Under the pieces are notes generated by a model. The model ran no database searches. It was given only the letters and a program-made list of their open reading frames with translations, and was not told the DNA's origin. From an uncultured Thiotrichaceae bacterium (GTDB taxonomy: Bacteria > Pseudomonadota > Gammaproteobacteria > SZUA-229), in NCBI GenBank assembly GCA_964522445.1, contig CAZFUY010000001.1, positions 387 through 64,386 on the forward strand: a stretch of 64,000 nt of DNA, read 5' to 3'. The stretch's first letter is position 1; each line of letters starts with the position of its first letter. A program made the position numbers and the translations under genes. Of this stretch, positions 33,824-61,166 are shown piece by piece.

Positions 33824-33844
33824 GCTTATAAATAAGTCGTAAAA

Positions 33845-33875
33845 CGGGGGAGCATTTTGCTCCCCCATTTTTGTT
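33845..33875 (+). terminator. Rho-independent terminator directly after nosZ
   Basis: acgggggagcattttgctcccccatttttg. Confidence 0.55.
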
Positions 33876-33944
33876 TTATAAAAACTAAATAGCTTGATTC
33901 CTGTGTGGGTAAATAATACGGCTCAAGTTCCGGAGATTAAAGTA

Positions 33945-34271: not shown

Positions 34272-34428
34272 CGGTTTTTATAAAAAATTTTGAGCAATTA
34301 TTTTTTTGATAGACATCAAGGTAATTACTTAGTCAAATTGAAAAAATAACCATAACCATAACAATAACATTAAGATTAAATAAGAGAGCCGGATAAACAT
34401 GTCCGGCTCTCTTGTCAGGAGAATATAC

Positions 34429-35154
34429 ATGACAGCAAGTAAAAAACTGATATCAACATTTTCTGCCATTTTTGTGGCAATGAGCTTCAGCGTGTCAGCA
34501 CAGGCTGCGGGCTGGAATGTCGATGGTGGCGAAAAAGATGAAGCGATGCATTTAAAAGGTAATATGGAAGACGGCCTTGATGTATTTGAGGTCTGCTCAG
34601 CATGCCACTACCCTGAAGGCTGGGGTACAAAAGATGGTACTTTTCCACAGTTAGCGGGGCAACATAAAGAAGTGTTGATCAAACAGCTGGCTGATATTCG
34701 GGCGCGAAATCGTGATAATCCAACGATGTACCCTTTTGCACTGCCTGAATCAATTGGCAGTGCTCAGGCTCTGGCCGATGTTGTTGCCTATATCGCAAAA
34801 TTGCCTATGAATCCTGATAATGGTAAAGGCAAATGGGCTAAAGGTACATCAGAACATTCGCAGGGCGAAAAATTATTTAAAGATAATTGTGTGAAGTGTC
34901 ATGGTGATCATGGTGAGGGCAAAAAGGAAAAATACTATCCCAAAATACAGGGCCAGCACTATAAATATATGCTACGTCAGTTCGAGTGGATTCGTGATGG
35001 CAAACGCCGCAATGCAAATCCAGATATGGTTAAGCAAATTAAAGACTTTACAGATAAAGACATGGAAATGGTTATAAATTACGTCTCACGTATATCTGTA
35101 CCTAAGAAAGATGTAGCGTCATCAAAAGACTGGAAAAATCCAGATTTTGATTAA
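34429..35154 (+). CDS. Diheme c-type cytochrome (cytochrome c4-like)
   Basis: Two CxxCH (CSACHYPEGWG, CVKCHGDHG). Signal peptide from the internal Met MTASKK with AGGAGA RBS. The ORF-track N-extension to 34399 is probably spurious. Confidence 0.75.
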   Translation: MTASKKLISTFSAIFVAMSFSVSAQAAGWNVDGGEKDEAMHLKGNMEDGLDVFEVCSACHYPEGWGTKDGTFPQLAGQHKEVLIKQLADIRARNRDNPTMYPFALPESIGSAQALADVVAYIAKLPMNPDNGKGKWAKGTSEHSQGEKLFKDNCVKCHGDHGEGKKEKYYPKIQGQHYKYMLRQFEWIRDGKRRNANPDMVKQIKDFTDKDMEMVINYVSRISVPKKDVASSKDWKNPDFD

Positions 35155-35212
35155 AACCATGTAAAAACTTCCTCACAGAAGGAAGCTTATGGAATAAAAT
35201 TTAACAGGGTAC

Positions 35213-35256
35213 AGACGGGGTGCATATTGTAAGATATAGCACCCCGTATTTTTTTA
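35213..35256 (+). terminator. Rho-independent terminator between the cytochrome genes and nosB
   Basis: acggggtgcatattgtaagatatagcaccccgtattttttt. Confidence 0.5.
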
Positions 35257-35278
35257 CGCCAAGCTTTTGAGGTTAAGT

Positions 35279-36274
35279 ATGAATGACACTGCTAATAACA
35301 ATAATAAACGTACACTATTAGTTGCGGGTTTAGCGGGCATTGCACTTGTATTATTAGCGATTGTTTATTTCACTCCAATCTGGTGGGTTTCACTTAAAGC
35401 ACCCAATTATCCGCCTGAAGCATTTCCTGATGGTATTCGTATTCATTTTCATTTTAATGGAGTCTTTAACGGCTGCCAGAAAGTTGAAAGCACAGAAGTT
35501 ATTGTAGAAGAGGCGCTTAATTGTGTTCATGAAATGGATACCATTAACCATTATGTTGGCATGTATCCCATTGCCAGTGGCGGACCAATTGAGCGAGTGC
35601 TTTCACAATTTCTGGTTACTTTTCTTGGTGTACTGATTGTTGCTTTTGTGATCCGAAAGAAGAAATTACGCGCAGTATTTATGAGTATTGGTTTTGGTGC
35701 AATAGCTGTCTGGATGTCTATGGCTATGTACAATGAAGGTGGTGTAATGATGCTGTCTGATGGTTATCGCGCAGCATTACAATCCTCACTTGATCTTGAT
35801 GTGGAAGACATACAGCACTGGAGTGGGCTGGAAGCTGTAACAGAAAGTTATCGTGACACATTGGGTATTTATTTTCGACAACAGGAAATTATAGGCCCAA
35901 AAGTAGCATCGCTTGAAGCATGGACCAATGGTCTTATCTACGCACTTATGGCTGTGATGTTGTTACTTATTATTGGTCCTTTTATACACAATATTTTTTA
36001 CTGGTTATTAGTTCTTGTTCCCATGATGTTACCGGTATTTTTTATTATCGATTATGCAGGGTGGTTATGGTATTTCGGTCATAACTTAAATGATATGGGT
36101 GCATTTACAGTTAAACCATTTATGCCAACTGTATTTGGGCAGGGTAAAGTGGCACAATTCTCAACCCATTCTTATCCCCATACGGGGTTTTTTATTATGA
36201 TGGCAATATCAGCTGTTTTAGCTGTTGCTGCAATTACACGTCATCGGCAAATAGAAGATGAAGGTGTTTTGTAA
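35279..36274 (+). CDS. nosB: Polytopic membrane protein at the nosB position of clade II nos clusters (putative NosB)
   Basis: About 330 aa, 5-6 predicted TM helices. Sits between the nosZ/cytochrome genes and nosD. Confidence 0.5.
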   Translation: MNDTANNNNKRTLLVAGLAGIALVLLAIVYFTPIWWVSLKAPNYPPEAFPDGIRIHFHFNGVFNGCQKVESTEVIVEEALNCVHEMDTINHYVGMYPIASGGPIERVLSQFLVTFLGVLIVAFVIRKKKLRAVFMSIGFGAIAVWMSMAMYNEGGVMMLSDGYRAALQSSLDLDVEDIQHWSGLEAVTESYRDTLGIYFRQQEIIGPKVASLEAWTNGLIYALMAVMLLLIIGPFIHNIFYWLLVLVPMMLPVFFIIDYAGWLWYFGHNLNDMGAFTVKPFMPTVFGQGKVAQFSTHSYPHTGFFIMMAISAVLAVAAITRHRQIEDEGVL

Positions 36275-36352
36275 TTCTGAACTCTATAGTGATGAGAAAT
36301 GTCATACTCGTAAACTTCAGTAAGTTATTAAGGATTTTTTAGGTAAAAGTAA

Positions 36353-37579
36353 ATGAGGCGCTTATTCTTCTTAGTGTTTAGTATCGTATTGCTCATAAAT
36401 AGCCAGCTAGTATTCGCGTCAGAATTAAAGCTGCTGCAGCCACTAATTGATGAAGCAAAAAAAGGCGACACAATTGTTTTAGAGCCAGGAATTTATAAAG
36501 GTCCAGTGACTATTGAGAAATCCATTACACTGGATGGCCAGGGTGAAGCAACAATAGATGCAGGAGGAGAAGGTTCGGTTATTTTTCTTGATACAGATGG
36601 TGCAGTGATTCGTGGCTTACGTTTAACTAATTCAGGTGAATCACACAATGACCTGGATTCTGGTGTTCAGGTTCGCGGCAATTTTAATGTTATAAAAGAT
36701 AATATTATAGATAACTGTTTATTTGGAATTGATCTACAACAGTCAGAAAATAATATTGTACGACGGAATGAAATTAGCTCTAAACCTGTTGATCTTGGTA
36801 TGCGCGGTGATGCTATTCGTTTATGGTATAGCTTTGGAAATAAAATAACTCATAATTATATTCATGATTCAAGAGATACCGTTGTCTGGTACTCAAAAAA
36901 TAATATTATTTCACATAATAAATCGACTCGTGGTCGTTACGCGTTACATTTTATGTATGCACAATATAATAAAATTGAAAACAATAAATACTGGGATAAT
37001 TCAGTCGGTATTTTCTTAATGTATTCTGATAGTGTTGAAATTAGAAACAATGAAATATCACATGCCTCTGGGCCAACGGGTGTGGCTATAGGCATGAAAG
37101 AAACATCGGATGTTATTATTGAAGGTAATAAATTACTTTATAATGCAGTAGGTGTTTATCTGGATGTTTCTCCTTTTCAGCCAGACACAGTTAATCTGAT
37201 AAACAATAATCTGGTTGCATTTAATAATATTGGCGTTCGATTTTTAAATGACTGGCCGGGTAATCATTTTAATAAAAATATTTTTAAAAGTAATATTACA
37301 TCAGTTTCCGTAAGCGATGGTGGTACAGCAAATCGAAATAAATGGGATGGTAATTACTGGGATAACTATGAAGGTTTTGATCTTAATAAAGATGGTATAG
37401 GTGATACACCGCATCGTTCATTTTCTTATGCGGATCGCTTGTGGATGGATGTGCCGTCAGCTCAGTTTTTTAAAGGCTCTCCTATGCTAGAGGTTTTAGA
37501 TTTTCTGGAAAGACTTGCTCCATTTTCGCCACCTGAAATGGTATTCCAGGATTCAACCCCCAGGATTTATGTAGATTAA
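36353..37579 (+). CDS. nosD: NosD, periplasmic right-handed beta-helix copper-processing protein
   Basis: Signal peptide. Repeated parallel-beta-helix motifs (NNIIDNCLFGIDL, NNEISHASGPTGVAIG, NNLVAFNNIGVRF). 408 aa. Followed by nosF/nosY. Confidence 0.85.
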   Translation: MRRLFFLVFSIVLLINSQLVFASELKLLQPLIDEAKKGDTIVLEPGIYKGPVTIEKSITLDGQGEATIDAGGEGSVIFLDTDGAVIRGLRLTNSGESHNDLDSGVQVRGNFNVIKDNIIDNCLFGIDLQQSENNIVRRNEISSKPVDLGMRGDAIRLWYSFGNKITHNYIHDSRDTVVWYSKNNIISHNKSTRGRYALHFMYAQYNKIENNKYWDNSVGIFLMYSDSVEIRNNEISHASGPTGVAIGMKETSDVIIEGNKLLYNAVGVYLDVSPFQPDTVNLINNNLVAFNNIGVRFLNDWPGNHFNKNIFKSNITSVSVSDGGTANRNKWDGNYWDNYEGFDLNKDGIGDTPHRSFSYADRLWMDVPSAQFFKGSPMLEVLDFLERLAPFSPPEMVFQDSTPRIYVD

Positions 37580-37581
37580 TT

Positions 37582-38424
37582 ATGAGCGATAAAGTTAATA
37601 AAAATGGAGCAGGAAAAAATAAAAAGCCACGCTTATCTCGTAAAGAGCGCGCACGTCGTGAATTTATTAGATCCGTTGTGCTGGCGGCAGGTGTCGTAGG
37701 TGTTGCAGGCGCAGGTTATTACCCAGTAGTAAAAAATAAAGCTTTGCGTTTACGTCCACCGGGCGCACTAGATGAAGATGAGTTTCTAGCAGCCTGTATT
37801 AAGTGTGGTCAATGTGTTCAGGTATGTCCTGTAGAAGCTATAAAGCTTGCAGATATTATGGATGGTTTTGGTATTGGTGTGCCTTATATTGATGCGCGTC
37901 CACAGGCCTGTGATTTTTCCTGTGATGGAATGCAATGTGTCCTCGCCTGTCCAACGGGCGCTTTAACTCATGAGTTAAATTATTCACATGAAACTCGAAT
38001 GGGGTTTGCACGATTATCTCGTCCGCATAAATGTCTGGCAGTACAGGGTAAAGGTTTTAAAGGTTTAGCCAGAGGAGCTGAATTTAAAGGTAAATTGCGT
38101 TATGACGATATTGATCGCTGGGTGCCACAATCTGTTGCAGAGCAGAACTATGATATTGAACTATGTGATCTTTGTGTTCGCCAGTGCCCTATTGAAATTC
38201 GTCGTAATCAATGTGATGCAGGCAAGCCACCATCGGGTGATAAAAATCAGTGCCCACCTAAAAAGGCAATTGAACTCATTGCAATTGATGAACAATCAGG
38301 TAGTGCAGCAATGAGGCCAGAAGTTATGGAGGGTTGTGTAGGTTGTGGCGTATGTGAAATGATTTGTCCTGTTGATCCGCCCGCTATTGTTATTGATGCA
38401 CGTAAGGAAGCACCAGTAGCATGA
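37582..38424 (+). CDS. nosG: NosG, NapG-like periplasmic 4Fe-4S ferredoxin (Tat signal)
   Basis: RLSRKERARREFIRSVVLAAGVVGVAGAG twin-arginine signal. Four Cys clusters (CIKCGQCVQVCP, CVLACP, CDLCVRQCP, CVGCGVCEMICP). Confidence 0.8.
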   Translation: MSDKVNKNGAGKNKKPRLSRKERARREFIRSVVLAAGVVGVAGAGYYPVVKNKALRLRPPGALDEDEFLAACIKCGQCVQVCPVEAIKLADIMDGFGIGVPYIDARPQACDFSCDGMQCVLACPTGALTHELNYSHETRMGFARLSRPHKCLAVQGKGFKGLARGAEFKGKLRYDDIDRWVPQSVAEQNYDIELCDLCVRQCPIEIRRNQCDAGKPPSGDKNQCPPKKAIELIAIDEQSGSAAMRPEVMEGCVGCGVCEMICPVDPPAIVIDARKEAPVA

Positions 38425-39419
38425 ATTATATAAAAGAATCATTAGCTCAGTTGTTTGGTGCAAGTCCTAAAAAACCTCTAAAGGAAGAGATTAAACCTGC
38501 GGCACAGGAAATTCATTTTTATAAAAAAGCCAATCCAGTTAGTAAAGCGTACATAGAAGAATTACATGCTGCTGGACATGGTAATAAATGGCGTAATCGT
38601 CGTTGGCTAACTCTATTATTTATAAACCTGTTATTTGTACTTTCGTATTATCTTGATATTCAACTTTTAGAAGGTGCGCTAACAGCATCACGATTTGCTG
38701 GCTTTCATATGGCTGATTTAAATTCGGCATTGCAGGTTATGCTGGCATTTAAAGAAGTGGTTTTAAACTTAATAATAGGAACAACAACAATTTTGATTAT
38801 GTGGCTATTGCTTGGTGGCCGCACATTCTGTTCCTGGGTTTGCCCTTATCATTTACTGGCAGAATGGGCAGAAGCAGTTCATCTTTGGCTGGTTAATAAA
38901 AAGATAATTGAAAATAAAACATTTCATCGTGGCATGCGAACCATTCTTTATGTTGTTTTTGCCTTACTGGCTTTTGTTACTGGCTATACAGTATTTGAAA
39001 CGATTTCACCAACAGGAATATTAAGTCGCGCATTAATCTACGGTCCTGGTTTTGCATTGATATGGGTGGGTGTGCTTTTATTATTTGAAGTATTTGTTTC
39101 GCGTCGTGCATGGTGTCGTTATGTTTGCCCTATTGGTATGACATACGGCATAGTTGGTGTGATTTCACCCATGCGCGTTACTTATCATGCAAAAGATTGT
39201 GCGCATGAAGGTGATTGCAGAAAAGTTTGTTTAGTGCCGCATGTTTTAGAACCAACGATTAAAGGCAGAGCCAGAGATCATCGTATTGATCTGGGTGCAG
39301 ATTGTACACGCTGTGGTTTATGTATAGATCTTTGCCCAACAGATTCACTAAGATTTGAATTTAAAATGCCAGGTCAGAAAAATATAGATCATAAAAATCA
39401 GGTAAGTAATCATGATTGA
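38421..39419 (+). CDS. nosH: NosH, NapH-like membrane-bound ferredoxin
   Basis: ATGA overlap with nosG. Four TM helices and two C-terminal Fe-S Cys motifs (CRKVCLVPH, CTRCGLCIDLCP). CxxC..CP in a TM loop (CSWVCPY, CRYVCPIG). Confidence 0.75.
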   Translation: MNYIKESLAQLFGASPKKPLKEEIKPAAQEIHFYKKANPVSKAYIEELHAAGHGNKWRNRRWLTLLFINLLFVLSYYLDIQLLEGALTASRFAGFHMADLNSALQVMLAFKEVVLNLIIGTTTILIMWLLLGGRTFCSWVCPYHLLAEWAEAVHLWLVNKKIIENKTFHRGMRTILYVVFALLAFVTGYTVFETISPTGILSRALIYGPGFALIWVGVLLLFEVFVSRRAWCRYVCPIGMTYGIVGVISPMRVTYHAKDCAHEGDCRKVCLVPHVLEPTIKGRARDHRIDLGADCTRCGLCIDLCPTDSLRFEFKMPGQKNIDHKNQVSNHD

Positions 39420-40281
39420 GTTTCAGCAGGTCAGTAAACAATTTAAAAAAGTATCCGTATTAAAGAAAATTAATTTGAATCTTGATGCAGGTAATCGTGT
39501 TGCGCTTGTCGGCTCAAATGGTGCAGGTAAAACAACATTAATAAGATGCCTGTTGGGAGAATATAATTATGATGGAGCTGTTTTAGTTGATGGATTAAAT
39601 CCACGTGATAATCGTCAACTGGTTTTAAAACGTATCGGTTTTGTACCGCAATTGCCACCACCTTTAAAAATGCCTGTGGGTCAGTTAATAAATTTCTCAG
39701 CCAGTGTTTGTGATGCAGATGCAGACAGAATGAAACATGTTGCAAAACGACTGGGGCTGGATGTTGAACAAATAATTAATCGTCCTTTTGTTAAATTATC
39801 GGGTGGTCAGAAACAGAAATTACTTATTAGTATTGCGCTGGGTCGTGATACAGATATTTTAATTCTGGATGAACCTGCTGCTAATCTTGACCCTGAAGCA
39901 CGACATATATTCTTTCAGTTATTATCAGAAAAACCAGAACATACCATTATGTTAATTTCCAGCCATCGACTTGATGAAGTTGCATCATTAGTAAATAGAG
40001 TGATTGAAATGGATCAGGGGCAGGTGGTACTGGATGATCATGTTGAAGACCTTGTCGATTTAACCAGTAAGCTCTATTGCAGAATCGGTTTAATAAAAGC
40101 AGAACCGGCATTTTCCAAAGCGATTAGTGACTGGGGCTTTACAGAGTCAGGTGACGGAAAAATATGGCAGGGCCAGGTTGCCGGGCCAGATCGGTTACGT
40201 TTTCTTGGCGTACTATCTCGATATGCAGGCCTGCTTTCAAGCATACAGATGGATGAACAGGAGGTTGAGTATCATGCATAA
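39412..40281 (+). CDS. nosF: NosF, ABC transporter ATP-binding protein
   Basis: Walker A GSNGAGKTT, signature LSGGQKQK, Walker B ILILDEP. Confidence 0.85.
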   Translation: MIEFQQVSKQFKKVSVLKKINLNLDAGNRVALVGSNGAGKTTLIRCLLGEYNYDGAVLVDGLNPRDNRQLVLKRIGFVPQLPPPLKMPVGQLINFSASVCDADADRMKHVAKRLGLDVEQIINRPFVKLSGGQKQKLLISIALGRDTDILILDEPAANLDPEARHIFFQLLSEKPEHTIMLISSHRLDEVASLVNRVIEMDQGQVVLDDHVEDLVDLTSKLYCRIGLIKAEPAFSKAISDWGFTESGDGKIWQGQVAGPDRLRFLGVLSRYAGLLSSIQMDEQEVEYHA

Positions 40282-40753
40282 AATACTGGCATTATTTTTA
40301 CTTGTGTTTTTAACCGCCTGTGAAAAAAATCAGACAGGTCCCGTTGAAGTTAAATGGGATCGTGATGCATGCGAACGTTGCCGTATGGTGTTAAGTGATC
40401 GTATGCATGCTGCTCAAATTAGAGGTGGAGAAGAAGGCAGTAAATCAAAGATTTATAAATTTGATGATATCGGTGGCGCTATTCTCTGGTTACAGGATAA
40501 GTCATGGAAAGATGATGCAAAAACAGAAATCTGGGTTAATGATCATCGAGATGGTCGCTGGCTGGCGGCACATGATTCATGGTTTATTAAAGGTCATATT
40601 ACACCCATGGAATTTGGTCTGGGTGCGCAGGATATGAAAACAGAAGATGCAATGAGTTATAGAGAAGCGGTAAATTATATAATTGATCGTGAACAGCGAT
40701 TTAATAAATCAGGCGCAGATCTAAAAGGGCAAATGCATGAACACCAGCACTGA
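40274..40753 (+). CDS. nosL: NosL, copper-chaperone lipoprotein
   Basis: Internal Met MHKILALFLLVFLTAC (lipobox) overlapping the nosF stop. DACERCRMVLSDRMHAAQI and FDDIGGAIL match the NosL CxxCxM copper-site region. The ORF-track start at 40127 is a spurious N-extension inside nosF. Confidence 0.7.
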   Translation: MHKILALFLLVFLTACEKNQTGPVEVKWDRDACERCRMVLSDRMHAAQIRGGEEGSKSKIYKFDDIGGAILWLQDKSWKDDAKTEIWVNDHRDGRWLAAHDSWFIKGHITPMEFGLGAQDMKTEDAMSYREAVNYIIDREQRFNKSGADLKGQMHEHQH

Positions 40754-41654
40754 AGCAATAGTTGATAAACTGAGTTTGAATGAAAAACAATTACAACTTA
40801 AGTCGGCATCTGGCACTATGTCCACCATGAAACATCTATGGTTAACTGCCTGGGCAGATATTGTCGAATCGATGCGAGCGCGCTGGTTTATGGTGTATGC
40901 CGGAATATTCGGCAGTATTGTGGTTTTATTATTTGTCTTTGGTCTGACCGAATCACGGATAATGGGCTTTACTGGCCTGTCTCGTTTGTTAATAACCTAT
41001 ATACAGCTCACCATGGCGATACTGCCTATTTTTGTATTGATTACCACTGTCAGATCGGTTGCAGGAGATCGTGAGGCAGGAGTATTCGAATACATGCTGT
41101 CATTGCCGGTATCACTGTCTGCATGGTACTGGGGTAAAACATTTGGGCGTTTTGCTGTTATTTTTATGCCAGTATTTATGGCCATGTTAATTGCGATAAT
41201 TGTCGGTGTTATTCGTGGCGCAGAAGTGCCATGGACATTATTTACTTATTACACGGGTTTACTTATTGTTCTTTCATGGTGCTTTCTTGGCATCGGCATG
41301 TTGATATCAAGCATTGCAAGAACGGCTGATGTTGCCACAGGTGCGGCATTTGTTATCTGGTTAGTATTAATATTATTTCTGGATTTAATTTTGCTCGGTA
41401 TTATGGTGCAGGAAGGCTTAAGTATGGAAGCCGCTGTGGCCGCATCGCTGGTTAATCCATTACAGGTTTTTAGAACAGCGGCAATGATGTTGTTTGATTC
41501 AAAATTGATACTGCTTGGGCCAACCGCGTATGTTATTTTAGATAACTTTAGCGTGAATGGTTATTTAACTTTTGCACTGTTATATCCATTGTTAATCGGT
41601 ACTGTAGCAGCAAGCACAGGTTACTGGTTATTTAAACGCAGTGATTTGCCATAA
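40737..41654 (+). CDS. nosY: NosY, ABC-2 type permease (start could alternatively be the internal Met at 40818)
   Basis: Six TM helices and ABC-2 permease topology downstream of nosF/nosL. The ATG at 40737 overlaps the nosL end. Confidence 0.75.
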   Translation: MNTSTEAIVDKLSLNEKQLQLKSASGTMSTMKHLWLTAWADIVESMRARWFMVYAGIFGSIVVLLFVFGLTESRIMGFTGLSRLLITYIQLTMAILPIFVLITTVRSVAGDREAGVFEYMLSLPVSLSAWYWGKTFGRFAVIFMPVFMAMLIAIIVGVIRGAEVPWTLFTYYTGLLIVLSWCFLGIGMLISSIARTADVATGAAFVIWLVLILFLDLILLGIMVQEGLSMEAAVAASLVNPLQVFRTAAMMLFDSKLILLGPTAYVILDNFSVNGYLTFALLYPLLIGTVAASTGYWLFKRSDLP

Positions 41655-42746: not shown

Positions 42747-43208
42747 ATGTGTAAAAAATGCTGGGTAATTGTTGCTCTGTTAATTGTTTTAGTGACAGGC
42801 ATGTTTATGAAGTTTGTTATTTTAGGTGAAACTGAAAAGCATGCCGATGGTAGAACAGCAATCAAATTAACAGAAGATGAAAAAAATATAGTATTAAGTG
42901 AAATGCGAGTATTTTTAATGAGCGTGCAACAAATTACTCAGGGCATTATTGATAAAGACATGCAGGCAGTTTCAAAATCTGCTCGACAGGTAGGTGCTGC
43001 TGCACAGGGTGGTGTGCCTGGTTCACTCATTAGAAAATTACCCATAGAGTTTAAAAAATTAGGTTTTGATACCCATTCAAAATTTGATCAGTTAGCACTA
43101 GATGCGGAACAGATGGGTGATGAGGAGTATGCGCTAACTCAGTTAAGTGAATTAATGCAGAATTGTGTGAGCTGTCATTCTGCTTTTAGATTTGTTGGAA
43201 CGAAATAG
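42747..43208 (+). CDS. Class II c-type cytochrome (cytochrome c' / c-556-like four-helix bundle)
   Basis: Single CVSCH heme motif at the extreme C-terminus, helical body, N-terminal signal/anchor. 153 aa. Confidence 0.6.
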   Translation: MCKKCWVIVALLIVLVTGMFMKFVILGETEKHADGRTAIKLTEDEKNIVLSEMRVFLMSVQQITQGIIDKDMQAVSKSARQVGAAAQGGVPGSLIRKLPIEFKKLGFDTHSKFDQLALDAEQMGDEEYALTQLSELMQNCVSCHSAFRFVGTK

Positions 43209-43256: not shown

Positions 43257-44000
43257 TTATTTATCATCAAGAATGGATAAATAAGAAAGAATATTATGTA
43301 TTTGTTCTTCTGTGAAATGAGACAGAAATGCTTCATCAGGCGCATCTTTATCGTGGATGCGTTTTTTATTTATAAACATTTTAATCTGGCGTTTTAAATA
43401 TTTGCTATATTGACCCGTTAGCATGGGTGCGCCTTTTTTGGGTTTGCCTTCGCCTTTTCTGCCGTGGCATGTTTTGCATTCTTTTTTATAGAGTTTTTTT
43501 CCAGCTTTAATATTACCATCAAGTTTTGCAATATTAAGCAGCTTTTTAGTCATCATCATACGTTCGTATGCGTCAAATTTTACATCTTTCACCAGGGGTG
43601 GTAATTTTGTGACCAGCTTTATTGATTCTAAATAAGCAGCTACATCAACTATTTCCTGGTCTGGAAGCTGGCCTTTATCAAGGTATTCCAGCATGGGCAT
43701 ATTGGGTCGAATTTTATCTCTAAATAAATGCAATTGATTTATGATATAAGCTGCGGGCAGGCTGGCCAGGCGTGGGTATTCGCCACCTTTACCACCTTCG
43801 GCGTATTCGCCATGACAGCCGGCGCAGGTTTCGTTTATCTCTTCACCTATTTCAAGGTCGGGTGGGTTTAGTTTTTCAGCAAATGATGGGCCTGTTATTA
43901 GAGTAAACAGGATAAATAATAGTTTTATGGCGGGTTTGTAAAGTGCAGAGAAATATTTATTAATAAGACCATAAAGATTTTTTCTTTTATTTGCGTTCAT
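43257..44000 (-). CDS. Diheme c-type cytochrome (c4/c553-like), co-oriented with fccAB
   Basis: Two CxxCH (CAGCHGEYAEGG, CKTCHGRKGEGK). Signal peptide. Confidence 0.75.
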   Translation of the reverse strand: MNANKRKNLYGLINKYFSALYKPAIKLLFILFTLITGPSFAEKLNPPDLEIGEEINETCAGCHGEYAEGGKGGEYPRLASLPAAYIINQLHLFRDKIRPNMPMLEYLDKGQLPDQEIVDVAAYLESIKLVTKLPPLVKDVKFDAYERMMMTKKLLNIAKLDGNIKAGKKLYKKECKTCHGRKGEGKPKKGAPMLTGQYSKYLKRQIKMFINKKRIHDKDAPDEAFLSHFTEEQIHNILSYLSILDDK

Positions 44001-44044: not shown

Positions 44045-45328
44045 TTAACCAAAAATATCATGCGTAATATTATTAAACCATGAATGCGCATAGTCTGCTT
44101 CACGTTGTCGCATATGATTACTTGCATCTATCGGTGTAAGACCACCCGCATTTTCAATTTTTATTATTTTACCATTTTCAAAGCCATAAACCATGGCAAC
44201 AGAAATAGCATCACCAGGTGCAATTATGCTGTAGCAGGTATTAATTAATGATGGCTGGATTAAATCACTGTCATTAAAAAGTGAAACAATTGCAGCAGCA
44301 CATACTTTAGCTTCTGAGTTGGCGGCATAGCCTGATTTTGGTAGTGGCGATGCTGTGGTGCTATCACCAATTACATGAATGTTTTTATGTATTTTAGATT
44401 CAAAAGTACTGTGATCAACTGGGCACCAGCCTGATTTATCGGTAAGGCCAGTAGTAAAAGCCAGTTTACCTGCTTTTTGTGGCGGAATAATATTAATTAC
44501 ATCGGCCTTAAAATCATCTGCCTGAGCAGAAATAGTTTTTGTTTTTGCATTAACACTTTCTACATGGCCCCCGTTAGAACTGCCAATCCATTCAATTAAA
44601 CTATTATCAGTGCCATAACCATAATGCCGTTTCCATCCCGCTTCAAAAAGTTTCTGTTTGGAAAATTTATCTTTGTCATCCAGAATAATAATTTTAGATT
44701 TTGGTTTATGTTTTTTTAAGTAATGTGCAATCTGTGATGCGCGCTCATAAGGTGCGGGAGGGCAGCGAAATGGATTGGCAGGTGGCGCAATAATTACTTT
44801 GCCGCCATCTGGCATGGCTTCAAGTTGTTTTTTTAATATGAGTGTTTGTGAGCCAGCCTGATATGAATGAGGAATTATTTCTGATACCTCTTCGCTGTAA
44901 CCTTCTATTTCATCCCATCTAAAGTCTATACCGGGTGAAATTATGCAGCGATCATATTTAAAAATTTTTCCACCACTAATGCTAATAGTCTGTTTATTGG
45001 TGTCAATTTTTGATGCAATATCATGAACAACTTTCACGCCGCGTTTTGTTAAAGCATCGTAAGTAAATTGCAGTGTTTTAAATTTGCGTTCACCACCAAG
45101 AAACTCATTGCTCATAAAACAGGTGGTGTAATACTTTTTAGGTTCAATGAGGGTGATATCAATACTGCTGTCCATAATATGCAGATATTTTGCAGCAGTG
45201 ACGCCACCAATACCGCCACCTACGATAACCACTTTTTTATTTTTAGCGGCATGAATCCAGGGGCTAAATGTTAAACAGCTGGATGCAGTAGCAGCTAAAG
45301 AAAGTTTTAAAAATTGACGACGTGACAT
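44045..45328 (-). CDS. fccB: Flavocytochrome c sulfide dehydrogenase, flavoprotein subunit FccB (SoxF-like)
   Basis: Tat signal MSRRQFLKLSLAATAS. FAD-binding VVIVGGGIGGVTAAKYL. About 427 aa, typical of FCSD flavoprotein subunits. Confidence 0.85.
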   Translation of the reverse strand: MSRRQFLKLSLAATASSCLTFSPWIHAAKNKKVVIVGGGIGGVTAAKYLHIMDSSIDITLIEPKKYYTTCFMSNEFLGGERKFKTLQFTYDALTKRGVKVVHDIASKIDTNKQTISISGGKIFKYDRCIISPGIDFRWDEIEGYSEEVSEIIPHSYQAGSQTLILKKQLEAMPDGGKVIIAPPANPFRCPPAPYERASQIAHYLKKHKPKSKIIILDDKDKFSKQKLFEAGWKRHYGYGTDNSLIEWIGSSNGGHVESVNAKTKTISAQADDFKADVINIIPPQKAGKLAFTTGLTDKSGWCPVDHSTFESKIHKNIHVIGDSTTASPLPKSGYAANSEAKVCAAAIVSLFNDSDLIQPSLINTCYSIIAPGDAISVAMVYGFENGKIIKIENAGGLTPIDASNHMRQREADYAHSWFNNITHDIFG

Positions 45329-45350: not shown

Positions 45351-45944
45351 TTATTTTTGAGCAGCATAAAAATTTAATAATTGTTCAATGCCCTGCTGTC
45401 CCATCTGCTTATGAATCTTGCGTAGCTTGAGTAGCATCTTGGTGGGTATTTCGCGTTTTCCACTTAAAATATCGGCAATGGTGTAACGTAAATAAGGTGT
45501 TTTCTGACCAGCTAAAATACCGGCATCATCATCTGAAGCACGGCCACCATCTTCATGGCATTTTTCACAATTATCTGCATGTATTTTTTTGCCCTTTTCA
45601 ACTAAAGCAGTAGTGTGTTTTTGAGTTGTAGGGATTAAAGTCTGGCTGGAAAAAAACTCAGACATAAGTTCTATTTGTTCCTCACTGTAGCCTTTGGCTA
45701 TTCTGTTCATTATTGTTGCTGGGCGCTCATCTTCTTTAAAGGCTTCCATTGCATCGATAAAGTAATCGGGGGAAATACCTGCAATACTGGGTGTTGCAGG
45801 CCCCTGACTAGAGCCGTTATGGCCATGGCAGGCTGCGCAGGCATTGGTCAGCATAGTGGCTTCAGTTGGTGCTTGTGCGTTTACAGTAAGACTAAACAAT
45901 ATGCCTGTTATAAAGCTTATTGAGTAAAAAATTTTACACGTCAT
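45351..45944 (-). CDS. fccA: Flavocytochrome c sulfide dehydrogenase, diheme cytochrome subunit FccA
   Basis: Two CxxCH (CAACHGHNGSSQG, CEKCHEDGGRASDD). Signal peptide. Immediately upstream of fccB. Confidence 0.8.
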   Translation of the reverse strand: MTCKIFYSISFITGILFSLTVNAQAPTEATMLTNACAACHGHNGSSQGPATPSIAGISPDYFIDAMEAFKEDERPATIMNRIAKGYSEEQIELMSEFFSSQTLIPTTQKHTTALVEKGKKIHADNCEKCHEDGGRASDDDAGILAGQKTPYLRYTIADILSGKREIPTKMLLKLRKIHKQMGQQGIEQLLNFYAAQK

Positions 45945-46271: not shown

Positions 46272-46817
46272 ATGATGAAGTCAGTGGTTAGTTTTATAGG
46301 CGGGATAGTGTTTACGGGTGTAGTGGCCTGGAATATGGCAGGTAGCATGATGCTAAGAGAAGTTGAAAGTCCTTTTGGTGTGGAAGAAACCGCCGCACGT
46401 ATTCAAAGGAATATTCAGTCTTTATCTGGTAACGGCTGGTCATTATCTGGTTTGCGCAATCCTGCTCGTGCAGTAGCTAATTCGGGCACTAATGTACCGC
46501 CTGTGTTGTTAATTGAAGCGTGTAGTACCAAATACTCAGGCCCTATTCTGAAAGGTGATGAAACACGTATTCTTTCTATTCTTATGCCATGCACTATTAC
46601 TGTTTATAAGAAAGATGATGGCAAGACATATGTTGGTCTAATGAACTCAGCGCTTATGGGGCGCATGTTTGGCCCCCTGGTGGGTGAAATTATGGGTGAA
46701 GTGGCTAAGGATCAAAAAGTATTTGTAACCTTTGATCCTAAAAAACCTGCACCACCATTAATCAAGATCCGCCCTGGTGGCGGTGGTGCGGGTGGTAAGG
46801 CAGCGGATGGTTGCTAA
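46272..46817 (+). CDS. DUF302-domain protein with a Gly-rich C-terminal tail
   Basis: EACSTKYSGPILKGDETRILSILMPCTITVYKKDDGKTYVGLMNSALMG matches the DUF302 core. N-terminal TM/signal segment. Ends in PGGGGAGGKAADGC. Confidence 0.6.
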   Translation: MMKSVVSFIGGIVFTGVVAWNMAGSMMLREVESPFGVEETAARIQRNIQSLSGNGWSLSGLRNPARAVANSGTNVPPVLLIEACSTKYSGPILKGDETRILSILMPCTITVYKKDDGKTYVGLMNSALMGRMFGPLVGEIMGEVAKDQKVFVTFDPKKPAPPLIKIRPGGGGAGGKAADGC

Positions 46818-46855
46818 AACTCACATCAACCCAGATTATTCCATGAGGAGGCAAT

Positions 46856-48520
46856 ATGTCTAAGCAAATTAACAAAGGCTCTGTGTTTGCAACAGCTTTT
46901 GTCATGAGTCTGGCATTTATTGGGTCTACACAGGCCAGTACAGATGCCAGCACAACTGACAAAACTGTAAGCGGGGCAATAGATGTGTTCGGGATTGCTG
47001 CTGATACACCAGCAAAAAAATCTACCGCAGATCATTCCAGGTTTAAAGAGCTGCAGGTAAATTTTAAAAGCGGCCCTGAAGTCACAAAGGCCTGTTTGAC
47101 CTGCCATACCGAGGCAGCCAAACAGTTACATAAAACAAAACACTGGAGCTGGGATTACATTAATGGAGATACCAAACAGCATTTAGGTAAGAAGAATGTC
47201 ATCAATAATTTCTGTACTTCAGTGCCATCTAACTACAAATTCTGCTCAGCATGTCATATTGGTTATGGATGGAAAGATGACAAGTTTGATTTTGCTGTAG
47301 AAGAAAATGTAGATTGTGTGGTTTGTCATGACACCACTGGCAGCTATAAAAAACTGCCAGGACTTGCGGGTCATCCAAATTACAAAACGATTGAATGGCC
47401 ACCTCATTCAGGTAAATTCAGGCCACCAACAGATCTGAAACGTGTCGCTCAGAATGTGGGTAAAACCAGCCGTGCAAGCTGTGGCGCATGTCATTTTAGA
47501 GGTGGCGGTGGTGATGCAGTGAAGCATGGTGATCTGGATAGTTCATTAACTAATCCATCTCGTTATCTTGATGTTCACATGGATGCCAAAGGTCTTAACT
47601 TCTCATGTGCAAAATGTCATACCAGTGACCAGCATGAAGTTGCCGGTAGTCGTTATCAGCCCACTGCCGCTGATGAGCAGGGTGTAATAACTCGTGGCAG
47701 TAAAGATGAGCGTAATGCAGCTACCTGTGTAGCCTGTCATGGCAATGAGCCTCATCCAGAAAAAGCAGCAAAAATGAATGAGCATACTGACAAGCTGGCT
47801 TGCCAGACATGCCATATTCCTGCTTTTGCGCGGGGTAATAAGCACACAAAGATGAGCTGGGACTGGTCAACTTTAGGTGATCTGGATGAACAGGGGCATC
47901 GCAAACGTATCTGGGGTTCAGATGGCATGGTTAAGTATGATAGTAAAAAAGGAAGCTTTACTCATGACCGTTATGTGATTCCTGAATATCAGTGGTTCAA
48001 TGGTGAAGTTGAGTTTACTTTGGCGGATACCGTGTTTGATCCGAATGAAATATTGAAAATCAACTCATTCAAAGGCAGTGCAGAAGATGGTAAATCTCGC
48101 ATATGGCCAACCAAAGTATTCCGTGGCAAACAAATGTATGACAAGGTTAAAAATACATTAGTGGTAACCAGTTTGTCCGATGATCCTGATACTGCATTAT
48201 GGAAAAACTACGACATCAAAAAAGCAGTTGAATTTGGAATGAAAAGTGTAGGCAGAGAATTCAGTGGAGAAGTGGGCTGGATTGAAACTGAAATGAGCTG
48301 GCCTATAACTCACATGGTTGCTCCTAAGGAAGATGCCGTTGAATGTCATCAGTGCCATCGTGACGGTGGTCGTTTAAAAGATATTAAAGGTATTTATATT
48401 CCAGGAGCTAACAACACACCGCTGCTTGATAAATTAGGTTTTGGTGCAGCATTGCTTACATTAATCGGTGTGTTATTCCATGGTTTGATTCGTGTTCTTA
48501 TGCATAAGAGAGGAGGGTAA
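46856..48520 (+). CDS. Octaheme c-type cytochrome (OTR/ONR/HAO superfamily-like) with a C-terminal hydrophobic anchor
   Basis: Eight CxxCH motifs (CLTCH, CSACH, CVVCH, CGACH, CAKCH, CVACH, CQTCH, CHQCH). Sec signal. C-terminal LGFGAALLTLIGVLFHGLIRVL. GAGGAGG RBS. Confidence 0.85.
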   Translation: MSKQINKGSVFATAFVMSLAFIGSTQASTDASTTDKTVSGAIDVFGIAADTPAKKSTADHSRFKELQVNFKSGPEVTKACLTCHTEAAKQLHKTKHWSWDYINGDTKQHLGKKNVINNFCTSVPSNYKFCSACHIGYGWKDDKFDFAVEENVDCVVCHDTTGSYKKLPGLAGHPNYKTIEWPPHSGKFRPPTDLKRVAQNVGKTSRASCGACHFRGGGGDAVKHGDLDSSLTNPSRYLDVHMDAKGLNFSCAKCHTSDQHEVAGSRYQPTAADEQGVITRGSKDERNAATCVACHGNEPHPEKAAKMNEHTDKLACQTCHIPAFARGNKHTKMSWDWSTLGDLDEQGHRKRIWGSDGMVKYDSKKGSFTHDRYVIPEYQWFNGEVEFTLADTVFDPNEILKINSFKGSAEDGKSRIWPTKVFRGKQMYDKVKNTLVVTSLSDDPDTALWKNYDIKKAVEFGMKSVGREFSGEVGWIETEMSWPITHMVAPKEDAVECHQCHRDGGRLKDIKGIYIPGANNTPLLDKLGFGAALLTLIGVLFHGLIRVLMHKRGG

Positions 48521-48524
48521 GACA

Positions 48525-49121
48525 ATGGCTGAAAGAATTTATATATTCAAACGGTTTGAACGTTTCTGGCATTGGGCTCAGGCTCTGCTTATCATTATTA
48601 TGCTGATAACAGGTTTTGAAGTTCATGGAAGTTACACCCTCTTTGGATTTGAAGATGCGGTGCAATATCACACCATTGCCGCATGGACGCTGGTTAGTTT
48701 ATGGGTGTTTGCTGTGTTCTGGCATTTCACAACAGGAGAGTGGAAACAATATATTCCAACGCTGGAAAAAGTGGATGCAATGATGAAGTATTACTTAACA
48801 GGCATCTTCACTGATGCACCCCATCCTGTTAAACAAACCACATTAAGTAAACATAATCCTCTGCAAAGACTGGCTTACCTGTTTGTATTAATGATGATCA
48901 ACCCATTAATCTGGACAACAGGCTGGTTCTATCTGTTTTACAGTTCATGGGAAGGCTGGGGACTGGGATGGTTGAGTCTGGAATGGGTTGCCTTTTTTCA
49001 TGTGATAGCGGCATTTATGATGCTGATATTTCTAATTGCACATGTCTATCTGGGAACAGCAGGCCATACAGTAACTTCACATATAAAAGCAATGATTACT
49101 GGTTGGGAAGAAGTGGATTAA
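48525..49121 (+). CDS. Membrane b-type cytochrome (HyaC/FdnI-like di-heme cytochrome b family), probable quinone-interacting partner of the octaheme cytochrome
   Basis: Four TM helices with conserved His (RFWHWAQAL, HTIAAW, HFTTGEW, HVIAAF, HVYLG). AGGAGG RBS 5 nt after the octaheme stop. The ORF-track start at 48492 is probably a spurious N-extension. Confidence 0.7.
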   Translation: MAERIYIFKRFERFWHWAQALLIIIMLITGFEVHGSYTLFGFEDAVQYHTIAAWTLVSLWVFAVFWHFTTGEWKQYIPTLEKVDAMMKYYLTGIFTDAPHPVKQTTLSKHNPLQRLAYLFVLMMINPLIWTTGWFYLFYSSWEGWGLGWLSLEWVAFFHVIAAFMMLIFLIAHVYLGTAGHTVTSHIKAMITGWEEVD

Positions 49122-49193
49122 TAAAGGTATATCCCCTCCCTCTTTACGAGGGAGGGTTAGGGGGGAGGATACTAAGTAACCGGAAAATAAAAT

Positions 49194-50045
49194 ATGAAAT
49201 TAATTTTAAAAGTACTGTTAGTGCTATTAATAATAAATAATGTATTTGCAAATAACAGGGAAGATTCTATTCCTCATGTCTCAAAAAAAGCACAGGATAG
49301 TTTTCAGTTTGATTATGCCTATGCAGATTTACACAGGGCATTTGCTATAGCGCCCGGTGGAGCATGGTCATGGAGCTCGGGCAGCCCAACGGTTGAAGAT
49401 GCAAAAAAAACAGCGCTGGAAAAATGTAATTCCTATACACAGCAAACCTGTATTTTATATGCGGTTGATAACGAATTAACTTTTAACAGACAGCAATGGT
49501 ACAGATTATGGGGGCCATATAAAACAGAACAACAGGCAAAAAAATCACAGCGGGGTGTAAAAAATGGCCAGATTTTCCCCAATCTGGAATATAAAGATTT
49601 AAATGGAAAAAAGAAATCTATACACGACCTAAAAGATAAAGTGGTATTTGTGCATTTATGGGGATGCTGGTGTCCTTCATGTAAATATGAATTTGCATCA
49701 TTAATTGATATGTACAGAATTTTAAAAGATATTGCAGGTGATCAGGTTGAGTTTGTAATTTTACAGGCAAGAGAGCCAATAGAAGATGCGTTAAGATGGG
49801 CGAAATCAAGAGGCTTTGATGCTCTGCCATTATCTGACTCAGGTGTAAAAAATGAAGATGACAAAGAGTTTCGCTTAAAAGGGGGAGGAAGAATTGCTGA
49901 TAGAGAAATAGCGAAAGTTTTTCCTGCCAGTTATGTTTTAGATAAGCAGGGTGTTATTGTTTTTTCTCATATGGGTTCGATTTCTAACTGGACTGAATTT
50001 GTGCCGTTTATTAATGACGTTGTAAAAAACTCAGGGAAAGATTAG
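49194..50045 (+). CDS. Periplasmic thiol-disulfide oxidoreductase (TlpA/ResA-like thioredoxin fold) with an N-terminal DUF4189-like domain
   Basis: WGCWCPSCK (CxxC active site) in a thioredoxin-like C-terminal half. Signal peptide. N-terminal Cys-containing domain (APGGAWSWSSG...C...C). Confidence 0.65.
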   Translation: MKLILKVLLVLLIINNVFANNREDSIPHVSKKAQDSFQFDYAYADLHRAFAIAPGGAWSWSSGSPTVEDAKKTALEKCNSYTQQTCILYAVDNELTFNRQQWYRLWGPYKTEQQAKKSQRGVKNGQIFPNLEYKDLNGKKKSIHDLKDKVVFVHLWGCWCPSCKYEFASLIDMYRILKDIAGDQVEFVILQAREPIEDALRWAKSRGFDALPLSDSGVKNEDDKEFRLKGGGRIADREIAKVFPASYVLDKQGVIVFSHMGSISNWTEFVPFINDVVKNSGKD

Positions 50046-50057
50046 AGTATTCCTGGC

Positions 50058-50432
50058 TTAATTCATGTTGTTTTTTAATAACCATGTTTCAGCTTTTTCT
50101 ACATGGTCAAAATGTAGCAATTCAATTCCTTTAAGGTTTAGCATGTTTTCCAGAATCGTATTTTTATTATTTAAACTGGGAGTAACAACGGCGATTCTCC
50201 AATTGCTCTCTACTAATCGGGAAAGACTATCGCCTATTAAAAGTATTGACTCCATAGTTAAAGTTTCAGTTAACCATTGTTTTGCTTTTATTAAAATCCG
50301 AGTATTTTTGTGAGCCTGTTGTAGAAGATGAGCCTGAAAAGTCATTAGCTTTAGAGAATTAATATCCCAGTCATCTAACAGATCAATTGTTAAAAAGCGG
50401 CCGCATTGCGAAAGAGACAGATCATTAGTCAT
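50058..50432 (-). CDS. Hypothetical small protein co-transcribed with the response regulator (4-nt overlap)
   Basis: 124 aa ORF with no recognisable motifs. Translationally coupled to the upstream gene. Confidence 0.3.
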   Translation of the reverse strand: MTNDLSLSQCGRFLTIDLLDDWDINSLKLMTFQAHLLQQAHKNTRILIKAKQWLTETLTMESILLIGDSLSRLVESNWRIAVVTPSLNNKNTILENMLNLKGIELLHFDHVEKAETWLLKNNMN

Positions 50433-51211
50433 CGTAATTGCTCTTTTTCTTTCTCCAGATATTTTTTAAATATTCGGCTGAAATGAGCTACATCCTTATA
50501 GCCGACCATGGCTGTAATTTCTTTTGTGGTATAGCCTTTCTGGTTCAGACTTTTTGCATAATTCATTCGCAAACCAAAAATATAACTGCTGCAGGAACAG
50601 TTAAGATATTTTTTTACTTTTCGTTGTAGCTGGCGTTTGCTGTGAGCCATTTCATGAGCAAGATTATCAACAGAAAATTCGCCTTCCTGGATTAATGTTT
50701 CAGAGATTTCTTTTAGTTTTTCCAGGAACTGCTGTTCTTTGCTTGGTAAACCGCTGCTGATAGTTGTATCACCAGAAACAAAATGATTACGACACCAGTT
50801 GATTATACGTTGACGGTTTTTGAGTTGAGCTTTGACTCTAACCAGTAATTCATTATTTAAAAAAGGTTTGGAAATGTAGTCATCAGCGCCAAGTTCCAGC
50901 CCTGCAATAATATCTTTCTCTGTATCAAGTGATGAGATCACTAAAATAGGGATATGAGCCGTTAATTCGTCCTGTTTTAAGGTTTCTAAAATTTTTAGCC
51001 CACTGCCATCGGGTAGTTTTATATCACACAGGATTAGATCAGGGAGATCCAGATAGGATTTTTCGAGAGCGCTCTCGACTGTTTCGGCAATACTAACAGA
51101 GTAGTAAGGAGATAAAATTTCTGAGAGCAGCATTGACATCATGCTTTCATCCTCAACAATCAGGATACATGTCTGCATTTCTTTTTTCTTGTTTTGCCCA
51201 TCAAGAAGCAT
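50429..51211 (-). CDS. Response regulator with an AraC-type HTH output domain (start may be the internal Met at 51178)
   Basis: Receiver domain (ILIVEDE, DLILCDIKLPDGSG, KPF). C-terminal AraC-family HTH (AMVGYKDVAHFSRIFKKY). Confidence 0.8.
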   Translation of the reverse strand: MLLDGQNKKKEMQTCILIVEDESMMSMLLSEILSPYYSVSIAETVESALEKSYLDLPDLILCDIKLPDGSGLKILETLKQDELTAHIPILVISSLDTEKDIIAGLELGADDYISKPFLNNELLVRVKAQLKNRQRIINWCRNHFVSGDTTISSGLPSKEQQFLEKLKEISETLIQEGEFSVDNLAHEMAHSKRQLQRKVKKYLNCSCSSYIFGLRMNYAKSLNQKGYTTKEITAMVGYKDVAHFSRIFKKYLEKEKEQLR

Positions 51212-60826: not shown

Positions 60827-61166
60827 AACGTCTCCTCTGCTTATAAATATATGCTTGCTTGACGTATAGGTCAACTAAATAACCTTTTTTGTTTTTAGGT
60901 GATAAATATTGTTTATAGGAATTGATTTTTTCTATAAATGTATCTTTTAGAGAGCTGTAAATATATCAGGTTAAAGTACAGGGTTTATCGATATAGTCAC
61001 TTATTGATTGCGGCTTATTTAAATGTGTTCTGGTTAACATATTAAGAACAAGGCGTTAATTTCTATTTATCTTGTGTGCTCTATCACTAAACAGTGATTA
61101 TAAATAACTATAGTTGTTTGAGATTTTAATTTCACAGGTATTGCTGCAATGTTACAAGTTAAGCCA

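Follow-up and report, generated by a model that had tools for sequence, protein, structure and literature searches.

A long-form Otr-family octaheme cytochrome with a cytochrome b, a terminal-Cys DUF302 protein and a redoxin in an uncultured Thiotrichaceae bacterium

Octaheme cytochromes of the tetrathionate reductase (Otr) family have had a crystal structure and in-vitro activities on record since 2004, and their physiological role is not settled. The Shewanella enzyme (SO_4144, PDB 1SP3) is a short, soluble protein that has neither a C-terminal helix nor a cytochrome b. Here we describe a related locus in a stretch of 64,000 nucleotides (the window) from an uncultured Thiotrichaceae bacterium (GTDB lineage Bacteria; Pseudomonadota; Gammaproteobacteria; SZUA-229; GenBank assembly GCA_964522445.1, contig CAZFUY010000001.1, positions 387 to 64,386 of the forward strand). 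At 46272-50045 the window encodes a longer Otr-family protein with a DUF302 protein, a cytochrome b and a secreted redoxin. We think it somewhat probable (roughly 55%) that these four genes specify a membrane-bound, quinone-linked Otr system that acts on S-S bonds and is served by a thiol carrier and a redoxin.

The Shewanella operon (loci L085 and L086 of our survey) consists of a monohaem cytochrome c gene, a DUF3373 gene and otr, and both the membrane anchor and the cytochrome b are absent. SO_4142 is named a monohaem cytochrome c in the literature; SO_4143 was considered as a cytochrome b and rejected, because otr and the monohaem cytochrome c gene have the DUF3373 gene between them. In Malonomonas, otr is a solitary gene. 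The window protein shares with the Shewanella enzyme eight CxxCH motifs, the Lys that is a haem ligand in 1SP3, a free Cys and a GGGGDAVKHGD loop; it differs in an N-terminal linker, internal insertions and a His-bearing transmembrane (TM) helix, and in the company of the cytochrome b, DUF302 and redoxin genes. Purified Shewanella Otr reduces nitrite and hydroxylamine as well (Atkinson 2007, cited in PMC4911364; PMC11237559). Metagenomic surveys use otr as a marker of tetrathionate or nitrite reduction, and tetrathionate induced otr transcription in sediment microcosms (PMC8528874). The nearest described arrangement is that of Thermosulfurimonas dismutans (TDIS_1882/1883), where a periplasmic Otr was proposed, from genome annotation only, to be tied to the membrane through the cytochrome b encoded next to it; the genome paper does not mention a C-terminal helix, DUF302 or a redoxin (PMC4911364).

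Two further systems resemble the module in part. HyaABC (NiFe hydrogenase-1) and FdnGHI have a periplasmic redox subunit (HyaA, FdnH) that ends in one TM helix, and HyaC carries haem-ligating His residues in TM1, in TM2 and, as a pair with H-x13-H spacing, in TM4, as does the window cytochrome b. Their catalytic partner is a NiFe or Mo enzyme, whereas here it is an octaheme cytochrome c. The SoxYZ-SoxS and DsrC systems are alike in concept, with a Cys on a Gly-rich arm, a periplasmic thioredoxin-fold partner and a haem enzyme working on S-S bonds. SoxS acts as the thioredoxin partner that resets SoxY. DUF302 has no sequence or fold kinship to SoxY or DsrC, and its arm ends on the Cys itself (...GC), which is neither penultimate nor embedded in GGCGG. 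The DUF302 protein of the module is also predicted to be membrane-anchored, unlike the Sox proteins, and the module contains no SoxZ, SoxB or SoxXA. A DUF302 gene lies within the sox clusters of organisms that use the tetrathionate-intermediate pathway; this gene of Acidithiobacillia and Thiobacillus, compared here by its description, belongs to the same Pfam family and has the same association with sulfur (PMC5037610).

The anchored Otr and its cytochrome b

The octaheme protein (46856-48520, + strand, 554 aa) matches TIGR04315 over model positions 1-440 of 440 with 603.7 bits (cutoff 375) and PF11783 with 212 bits. 1SP3 is its only solved relative (E 2e-106), and among its more than 7,000 homologues many already bear the annotation "tetrathionate reductase family octaheme c-type cytochrome". 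In the NCBIfam and Pfam scans, to which the comparison with HAO, ONR and MccA was confined, the only other NCBIfam match was TIGR04314 at 15 bits (cutoff 250), and the sequence has no CxxCK (NrfA/ONR) motif, no MccA-type (CX15CH) motif and no extra Cys pair. Judged by these matches, the protein is a clear member of the Otr family. A first, sequence-only reading of the window had stated that the genes could not be assigned to a described system. That statement does not hold, given the Otr score of 604 bits and the existing annotation of homologues, and the adjacency of Otr and cytochrome b had itself been noted in a genome paper (PMC4911364). Because the catalytic protein belongs to a known family, the locus is not a categorically new system.

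The same reading had counted eight CxxCH motifs in an exported cytochrome with a C-terminal helix, and the count is exact (residues 80, 130, 154, 209, 251, 291, 316 and 497). All eight are kept in an alignment of 82 long-form Otr sequences, which we used for residue conservation and in which 80 had complete C-terminal tails. The only Cys outside the motifs is Cys120 (nt 47213-47215). Lys112 (nt 47189-47191, motif LGKKNVINNFC) aligns with Lys56 of 1SP3, and Cys120 with Cys64. Lys56 of 1SP3 is a haem ligand that does not derive from a CxxCK motif (PMC12285233). K112, C120, K223 (in GGGGDAVKHGD) and H241 are invariant in the 82 sequences, and we predict that K112 is the ligand of the active-site haem with C120 as a free Cys nearby, as in Otr.

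The protein begins with a signal-like helix (signal peptide about residues 1-27) and ends with a single hydrophobic helix (about residues 523-547; TM 524-547, nt 48425-48496). Relatives of the window protein are about 530-590 aa long, against 445-486 aa for relatives of 1SP3. The helix carries His542 (nt 48479-48481), which is kept in 80 of 82 sequences, and the motif GV..H[GAS]..R is found in 79 of the 80 complete tails. We predict that the helix tethers the octaheme subunit to the membrane. Quinone reactivity of the Wolinella hydrogenase depends on a His in the C-terminal helix of its small subunit, and by analogy His542 may sit near a quinone or haem site.

At least 565 stretches of species-level genomes matched, and we surveyed the best 80 of them, counting partner genes within 6 kb of otr; clusters of open reading frames (ORFs) in alternative frames of high-GC loci were dropped as artefacts. 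Gamma-, Beta- and Alphaproteobacteria as well as Chloroflexota host these 80 long-form loci. Of the 72 loci that extend far enough, 70 have a cytochrome b ORF immediately after otr, in keeping with the suggestion of the sequence-only reading that an anchored octaheme protein is paired with a dedicated, quinol-interacting cytochrome b. There are two exceptions. In L077 (27-2423) a single ORF encodes the Otr, the C-terminal helix and the cytochrome b fused in frame, which supports a physical complex of the two; the fusion comes from one contig of a metagenome-assembled genome (MAG) and may be an assembly or frameshift artefact. In L079 the place of the cytochrome b after Otr is taken by SoxYZ.

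The cytochrome b of the window (48525-49121, + strand, 198 aa) matches PF01292 with 89.7 bits (cutoff 30.1) and has four hydrophobic segments, read as four TM helices. Its candidate haem ligands are His16, His49 (or His67), His159 and His173; among 76 orthologues H16, H49, H159 and H173 are conserved at 95% or more and H67 at 89%. A profile built from the orthologues matches E. coli HyaC (4GD3_A, E 0.001) with the His residues of TM1 and TM2 and both of TM4 aligned; phmmer with the single sequence gave no meaningful match in the PDB. All scores are below the equivalog cutoffs: PhsC-like 114 bits against 204 (the best NCBIfam match), HyaC 42.5 against 121.5 and FdnI 36.5 against 115.9. By these scores the protein is a PF01292 superfamily member, yet not a PhsC, HyaC or FdnI equivalog. 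The description as a di-haem cytochrome b of HyaC/FdnI type stands on PF01292 and the HyaC-aligned His residues, and its start needs correction from GTG 48492: the gene calls of the source contig and of homologous contigs begin at ATG 48525, and all orthologues begin MAERIY, so that translation most probably starts at this ATG. A dedicated cytochrome b of this type implies, as far as homology can, a link to the quinone pool.

In the searched literature we found no experimental characterisation of a long-form Otr with its cytochrome b, in agreement with the earlier statement that the substrate of this architecture is not established. As far as that literature shows, neither the membrane-bound architecture nor its apparent partnership with a redoxin and a DUF302 protein ending in Cys has been described. 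The sequence-only reading had also considered that the protein might fall within a known family and operon type. The catalytic subunit does fall within one, and the operon type is not that of Shewanella. The soluble Shewanella enzyme is thus not the sole operon type in the Otr family, and the predicted anchored form is widespread, being present in all of the best 80 of at least 565 stretches.

A terminal-Cys DUF302 protein, a redoxin and other sulfur partners

The first gene of the module (46272-46817, + strand, 181 aa) encodes a DUF302 protein, as first described (PF03625, E 9.5e-10, 38.7 bits against a cutoff of 23), and the fold agrees. It consists of an N-terminal helix (residues 2-27, nt 46275-46352), the domain (28-151, nt 46353-46724) and a Pro/Gly-rich arm (152-181, nt 46725-46814) that ends at Cys181 (nt 46812-46814). 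Orthologues follow the same plan of hydrophobic helix, domain, linker (..PSKPAPP..), Gly-rich stretch and final Gly-Cys. Position -3 before the putative signal cleavage site is occupied by bulky residues in most of them, which suggests that the helix is an uncleaved anchor. An AlphaFold2 model has a confident alpha/beta domain that matches the DUF302 structures 1Q9U, 7TJ1 and 1J3M (TM-scores of 0.70-0.85 when normalised to the length of the target). From residue 152 onwards the model shows no secondary structure, and its predicted local distance difference test score is below 50 at residues 170-181; the arm is predicted from this model to be flexible or disordered. No SoxY or DsrC Pfam match was found in the protein.

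The final Gly-Cys and a total of exactly three Cys are found in all 21 orthologues from the loci and in all 120 best homologue clusters. A search of 1.8 billion cluster representatives confined the tail to the closest DUF302 branch, and about 100 other membrane-anchored relatives stop near residue 152 and so have no arm. The two other Cys, C84 and C107, are also conserved in the armless relatives. These armless membrane-anchored proteins (about 150-170 aa, P0131-P0270) keep two Cys equivalent to C84 and C107, which suggests a thiol-based function of the whole branch. Tandem-duplicated DUF302 proteins also exist (P0125, P0126 and P0129). In the searched literature we found no paper that assigns a function to DUF302 and nothing on DUF302 together with tetrathionate reductase.

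The last gene (49194-50045, + strand, 283 aa) encodes a secreted two-domain thiol:disulfide oxidoreductase, here called the redoxin, with scores of 41 bits for Redoxin and 40 bits for AhpC-TSA, both above the Pfam cutoffs. A signal peptide is predicted at about residues 1-20. The earlier description of a periplasmic CxxC redoxin with a DUF4189-like domain is borne out by the WCPSC motif (W159, C160-P-S-C163; nt 49671-49682) and by an N-terminal domain that scores 21.4 bits (cutoff 25) in the window protein and that matches PF13827 in 10 of 18 orthologues. H154, W156, G157, W159, C160, C163, C78 and C86 are invariant in the 18, and C78 and C86 lie in the DUF4189-like domain. The protein is below the cutoffs of the named families (ResA 49 bits against 170, DsbE/CcmG 34 against 123, TlpA 33 against 230, StoA 28 against 210). 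By these matches it is an exported TlpA/ResA-like thioredoxin-fold protein outside the named families.

DUF302 is present in 20 of the 80 surveyed loci and lies directly upstream of otr in 18 of the 74 that are informative. The redoxin is found only where DUF302 is present (13 of 20 loci against 0 of 60; Fisher p 2e-10, loci treated as independent), and of the seven DUF302 loci in which no redoxin was detected, several are incomplete stretches. When arm-bearing DUF302 genes were picked from the DUF302 side, 3 of 3 lay directly upstream of Otr-cytochrome b. By neighbour-joining, the DUF302-linked Otrs form three pure clades, one each in Gamma-, Beta- and Alphaproteobacteria. Tyr237 (nt 47564-47566) marks them: it occurs in 20 of 21 DUF302-linked Otrs and in none of 61 other long-form Otrs, where the position is Glu, Ala, Asp or Ser, and it corresponds to Ala167 of Shewanella 1SP3. 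The residue is placed 4 residues before the invariant His241 and 14 after K223 of the GGGGDAVKHGD loop.

Other genes recur near otr in the 80 loci. A rhodanese gene is present in 25, a monohaem cytochrome c gene in 22, a YeeE gene (PF04143, "sulphur transport") in 18 and a DUF3373 gene in 8. At least one sulfur-trafficking partner is found within 6 kb in 49 of the 80. DUF302 and the other sulfur partners tend to replace each other, with both in 2 loci, DUF302 only in 18 and others only in 29 (Fisher p 0.003, loci treated as independent). One of the two overlaps, L005 (5716-13543), has two Otr copies, a DUF302-linked one near a rhodanese-linked one with its own cytochrome b. L084 (9001-16240) also has two Otr paralogues, in the order DUF302, Otr, cytochrome b, cytochrome c, YeeE, second Otr and redoxin.

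SoxYZ is a further partner. The order Otr-cytochrome b-SoxY-SoxZ is found in L060, L064, L068 and L077, which form one clade with L079. L079 (5695-9590) is from a Magnetospiraceae MAG and has a helix-bearing long-form Otr followed by SoxY, SoxZ and two rhodaneses; no cytochrome b was detected in this 13.4-kb locus (6 kb on either side). Its SoxY matches PF13501 with 93 bits and has the tail ...AGAGGCG, its SoxZ matches PF08770, and one of the rhodaneses has a lipoprotein-type signal. A regular-expression search of the loci for SoxY-like proteins with a GGCGG tail had returned none because real SoxY tails end in GGCG, and the L079 SoxY used as a query then retrieved them. In lucinid symbionts, otr likewise adjoins soxY and soxZ (PMC11237559).

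Proposed function and alternative explanations

We propose that the two b haems and the chain of c haems would carry electrons between the active site of Otr and the quinone pool, and that the substrate would be an S-S-bonded sulfur compound such as tetrathionate. Comparative genomics suggests that the two partners confined to certain clades, DUF302 and the redoxin, are thiol proteins that act on one and the same side of the membrane. The Cys on the anchored DUF302 arm could serve as a swinging-arm carrier or shuttle, as a Cys-S-thiosulfonate, a persulfide or a mixed disulfide. This adduct would be formed or cleaved at the Otr active site, or the arm may instead shuttle reducing equivalents. 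The secreted CxxC redoxin would reset this Cys in the way that SoxS resets SoxY. In the remaining clades of Otr, SoxYZ, a periplasmic rhodanese or YeeE appears to fill the role. We lean slightly towards the reductive direction (quinol to S-S bond) because the tetrathionate/thiosulfate couple, at +198 mV, lies above the potential of ubiquinone. The literature value for this couple is about +198 mV (PMC8528874). The thiol-carrier pairing gives a concrete hypothesis for the in-vivo substrate of Otr.

A more specific form of this proposal is that the Otr-linked DUF302 protein is a new membrane-tethered swinging-arm carrier of the physiological substrate of Otr, reset by the redoxin, and that SoxYZ, rhodanese and DUF302 are interchangeable in this role. 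The carrier would resemble SoxY and DsrC in function but not in descent, the substrate on its terminal Cys would be a protein-bound thiosulfonate, persulfide or disulfide, and the complexes of Otr and cytochrome b would be quinone-linked enzymes for carrier-bound sulfur. We put it forward tentatively, as an idea that may well prove wrong. If true, it would be the first function for DUF302 and would explain the presence of Otr in sulfur- and iron-oxidising lithotrophs.

Several points weigh against the favoured S-S bond system. Sequence does not reveal which way the electrons flow, and the chemistry above is inferred. HyaC/FdnI-type cytochromes usually take electrons from periplasmic dehydrogenases, a habit that would suit an oxidative role. 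The purified Shewanella enzyme is also a nitrite and hydroxylamine reductase. The DUF302 protein is not homologous to SoxY or DsrC, its tail is ...GC and no SoxZ-like partner is present; because C84 and C107 are kept in the armless relatives, the domain may have a thiol function that is independent of Otr. In L089, and in some further loci, the 6 kb examined contained no redoxin, and 31 of the 80 long-form loci have no recognised sulfur partner within this distance. The co-occurrence statistics ignore shared ancestry.

The likeliest alternative, which we nevertheless regard as unlikely, is an ordinary quinol:tetrathionate (or broad-specificity) Otr in which the roles of DUF302 and the redoxin are limited to maturation or protection and neither carries a substrate. 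They might keep Cys120 of Otr or the cysteines of the apocytochrome reduced, or aid assembly. TlpA, ResA and DsbE redoxins usually serve cytochrome maturation and are the best, though sub-threshold, NCBIfam matches of the redoxin, the free Cys120 is invariant in long-form Otrs, and C84 and C107 of DUF302 are conserved in armless relatives unrelated to Otr. However, 60 of the 80 long-form loci have the same eight haems and Cys120 and carry neither DUF302 nor the redoxin, so that general maturation must proceed without them. Only the Otr-linked branch of DUF302 has the invariant flexible arm with its terminal Cys, and elsewhere DUF302 is replaced by genuine sulfur carriers or transferases (SoxYZ, rhodanese) rather than by maturation factors.

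An oxidative complex is improbable in our estimation. It would oxidise thiosulfate or carrier-bound sulfane sulfur and pass the electrons via cytochrome b to quinone, with a lithotrophic gain like that of Hya and Fdn. Most of the hosts are lithotrophs that oxidise sulfur or iron (among them Sedimenticola, Sulfuricellaceae, Gallionella/Sideroxydans and Endothiovibrio), the HyaC/FdnI architecture is classic for quinone-reducing dehydrogenases, SoxYZ and DUF302 are associated with sulfur oxidation clusters, and fccAB adjoins the module in the window. Yet the oxidation of thiosulfate to tetrathionate (+198 mV) with ubiquinone would be uphill and, in a Hya-type loop, would also run against the membrane potential; the adjacency of fccAB is not conserved (0 of 80 loci), and the Otr that has been characterised is a reductase.

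It is very unlikely that the module, placed near nos, encodes a membrane-bound quinol:nitrite or hydroxylamine reductase that serves ammonification or detoxification: Shewanella Otr does reduce nitrite and hydroxylamine in vitro (PMC4911364, PMC11237559), a clade-II-type nos cluster lies at 31.5-41.7 kb of the window and NapC/NirT-like and HAO-like multihaem genes occur near some non-DUF302 loci, but the nos block is part of an apparent insertion that is missing in relatives with the module, sulfur-trafficking proteins are the neighbours that recur and the two thiol proteins have no obvious role with nitrite.

Operon layout and genomic context

The four genes form a conserved, self-contained module. 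Its gene order recurs in many genomes amid unrelated neighbourhoods, so the arrangement is not due to chance. In L082, L083 and L090 the four-gene cassette is embedded among unrelated housekeeping genes, and the window module also matches a 4.2-kb contig of metagenome assembly GCA_006243105.1. The genes had been described as a co-oriented operon with gaps of 5-70 bp and strong ribosome-binding sites. They are co-oriented; with the cytochrome b start at 48525 the gaps are 38, 4 and 72 nt, and GAGGAG-type sites precede the first three genes (DUF302, Otr and cytochrome b). A promoter and terminator scan of 45.8-50.6 kb gave numbers at the level of shuffled sequence (13 against 13.6, and 5 against 4.1).

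The position of the module between fccAB and an AraC-type response regulator, which had been taken as informative, is not. The fccB gene is found near Otr in 0 of the 80 loci and adjoins the module only in the window and very close relatives, and the regulator is absent downstream of the module in the closest long contig. In L084 and L090 the genes immediately before DUF302-Otr are those of 20-27 kb of the window (DsbA, GGDEF, SLT/MltC, LPP20 and a protein of about 512 aa); therefore the TRAP-nos-UbiA-cytochrome c'-fccAB block, which occupies about 19 kb (about 27.5-46 kb) between the LPP20/512-aa pair and DUF302-Otr, looks like a lineage insertion. On the other side, a NosD-like gene directly follows the redoxin gene in the closest long contig and is found at 61149 in the window. 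This displacement suggests that the block at about 50-61 kb (response regulator, ETF-QO, EtfAB, beta-oxidation and MerR) was also inserted. Given the absence of fccB from the 80 loci and these insertions, position gives no functional evidence, and a functional tie of fccAB, nos or the AraC-type regulator to the module was rejected on grounds of synteny. Of the sulfur- or nitrogen-oxide function first suggested, the sulfur part agrees with the recurrent neighbours (rhodanese, YeeE and SoxYZ) and the nitrogen-oxide part does not. As a caution for annotation, neither otr matches nor adjoining fccAB or nos genes should be taken as evidence for a particular pathway.

In the spacer between the cytochrome b and redoxin genes there is a G+C-rich hairpin (49126-49173, + strand; core CCCTCCCTC / GAGGGAGGG, read from the sequence). 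RNAfold gives -23.3 kcal/mol for the 72-nt spacer; no T-run follows, and the hairpin was not called by the terminator scan. It could influence mRNA stability or the relative expression of the cytochrome b and redoxin genes.

Downstream of the module, a response regulator with REC and AraC-type HTH domains (50429-51211, - strand) overlaps by 4 nt a 124-aa ORF (50058-50432) that has no family match. No cognate kinase was seen near this pair, which is not conserved beside the module. Upstream, the window encodes a flavocytochrome c sulfide dehydrogenase flavoprotein with a TAT signal (44045-45328), with one di-haem-like cytochrome c gene on each side (43257-44000 and 45351-45944), and a small cytochrome c'-like protein upstream of the fcc genes (42747-43208).

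The nos cluster (31526-41654) has an atypical, clade II-like layout. It includes NosZ (765 aa, with a nos_propeller and a COX2 domain), two c-type cytochromes, a 335-aa protein without assignment, NosD, two 4Fe-4S proteins (NosG/H-like), an ABC ATPase and an ABC-2 permease. Outside this cluster, 61149-62555 encodes another NosD-like beta-helix protein (468 aa) and is followed by an MMPL-family gene on the opposite strand.

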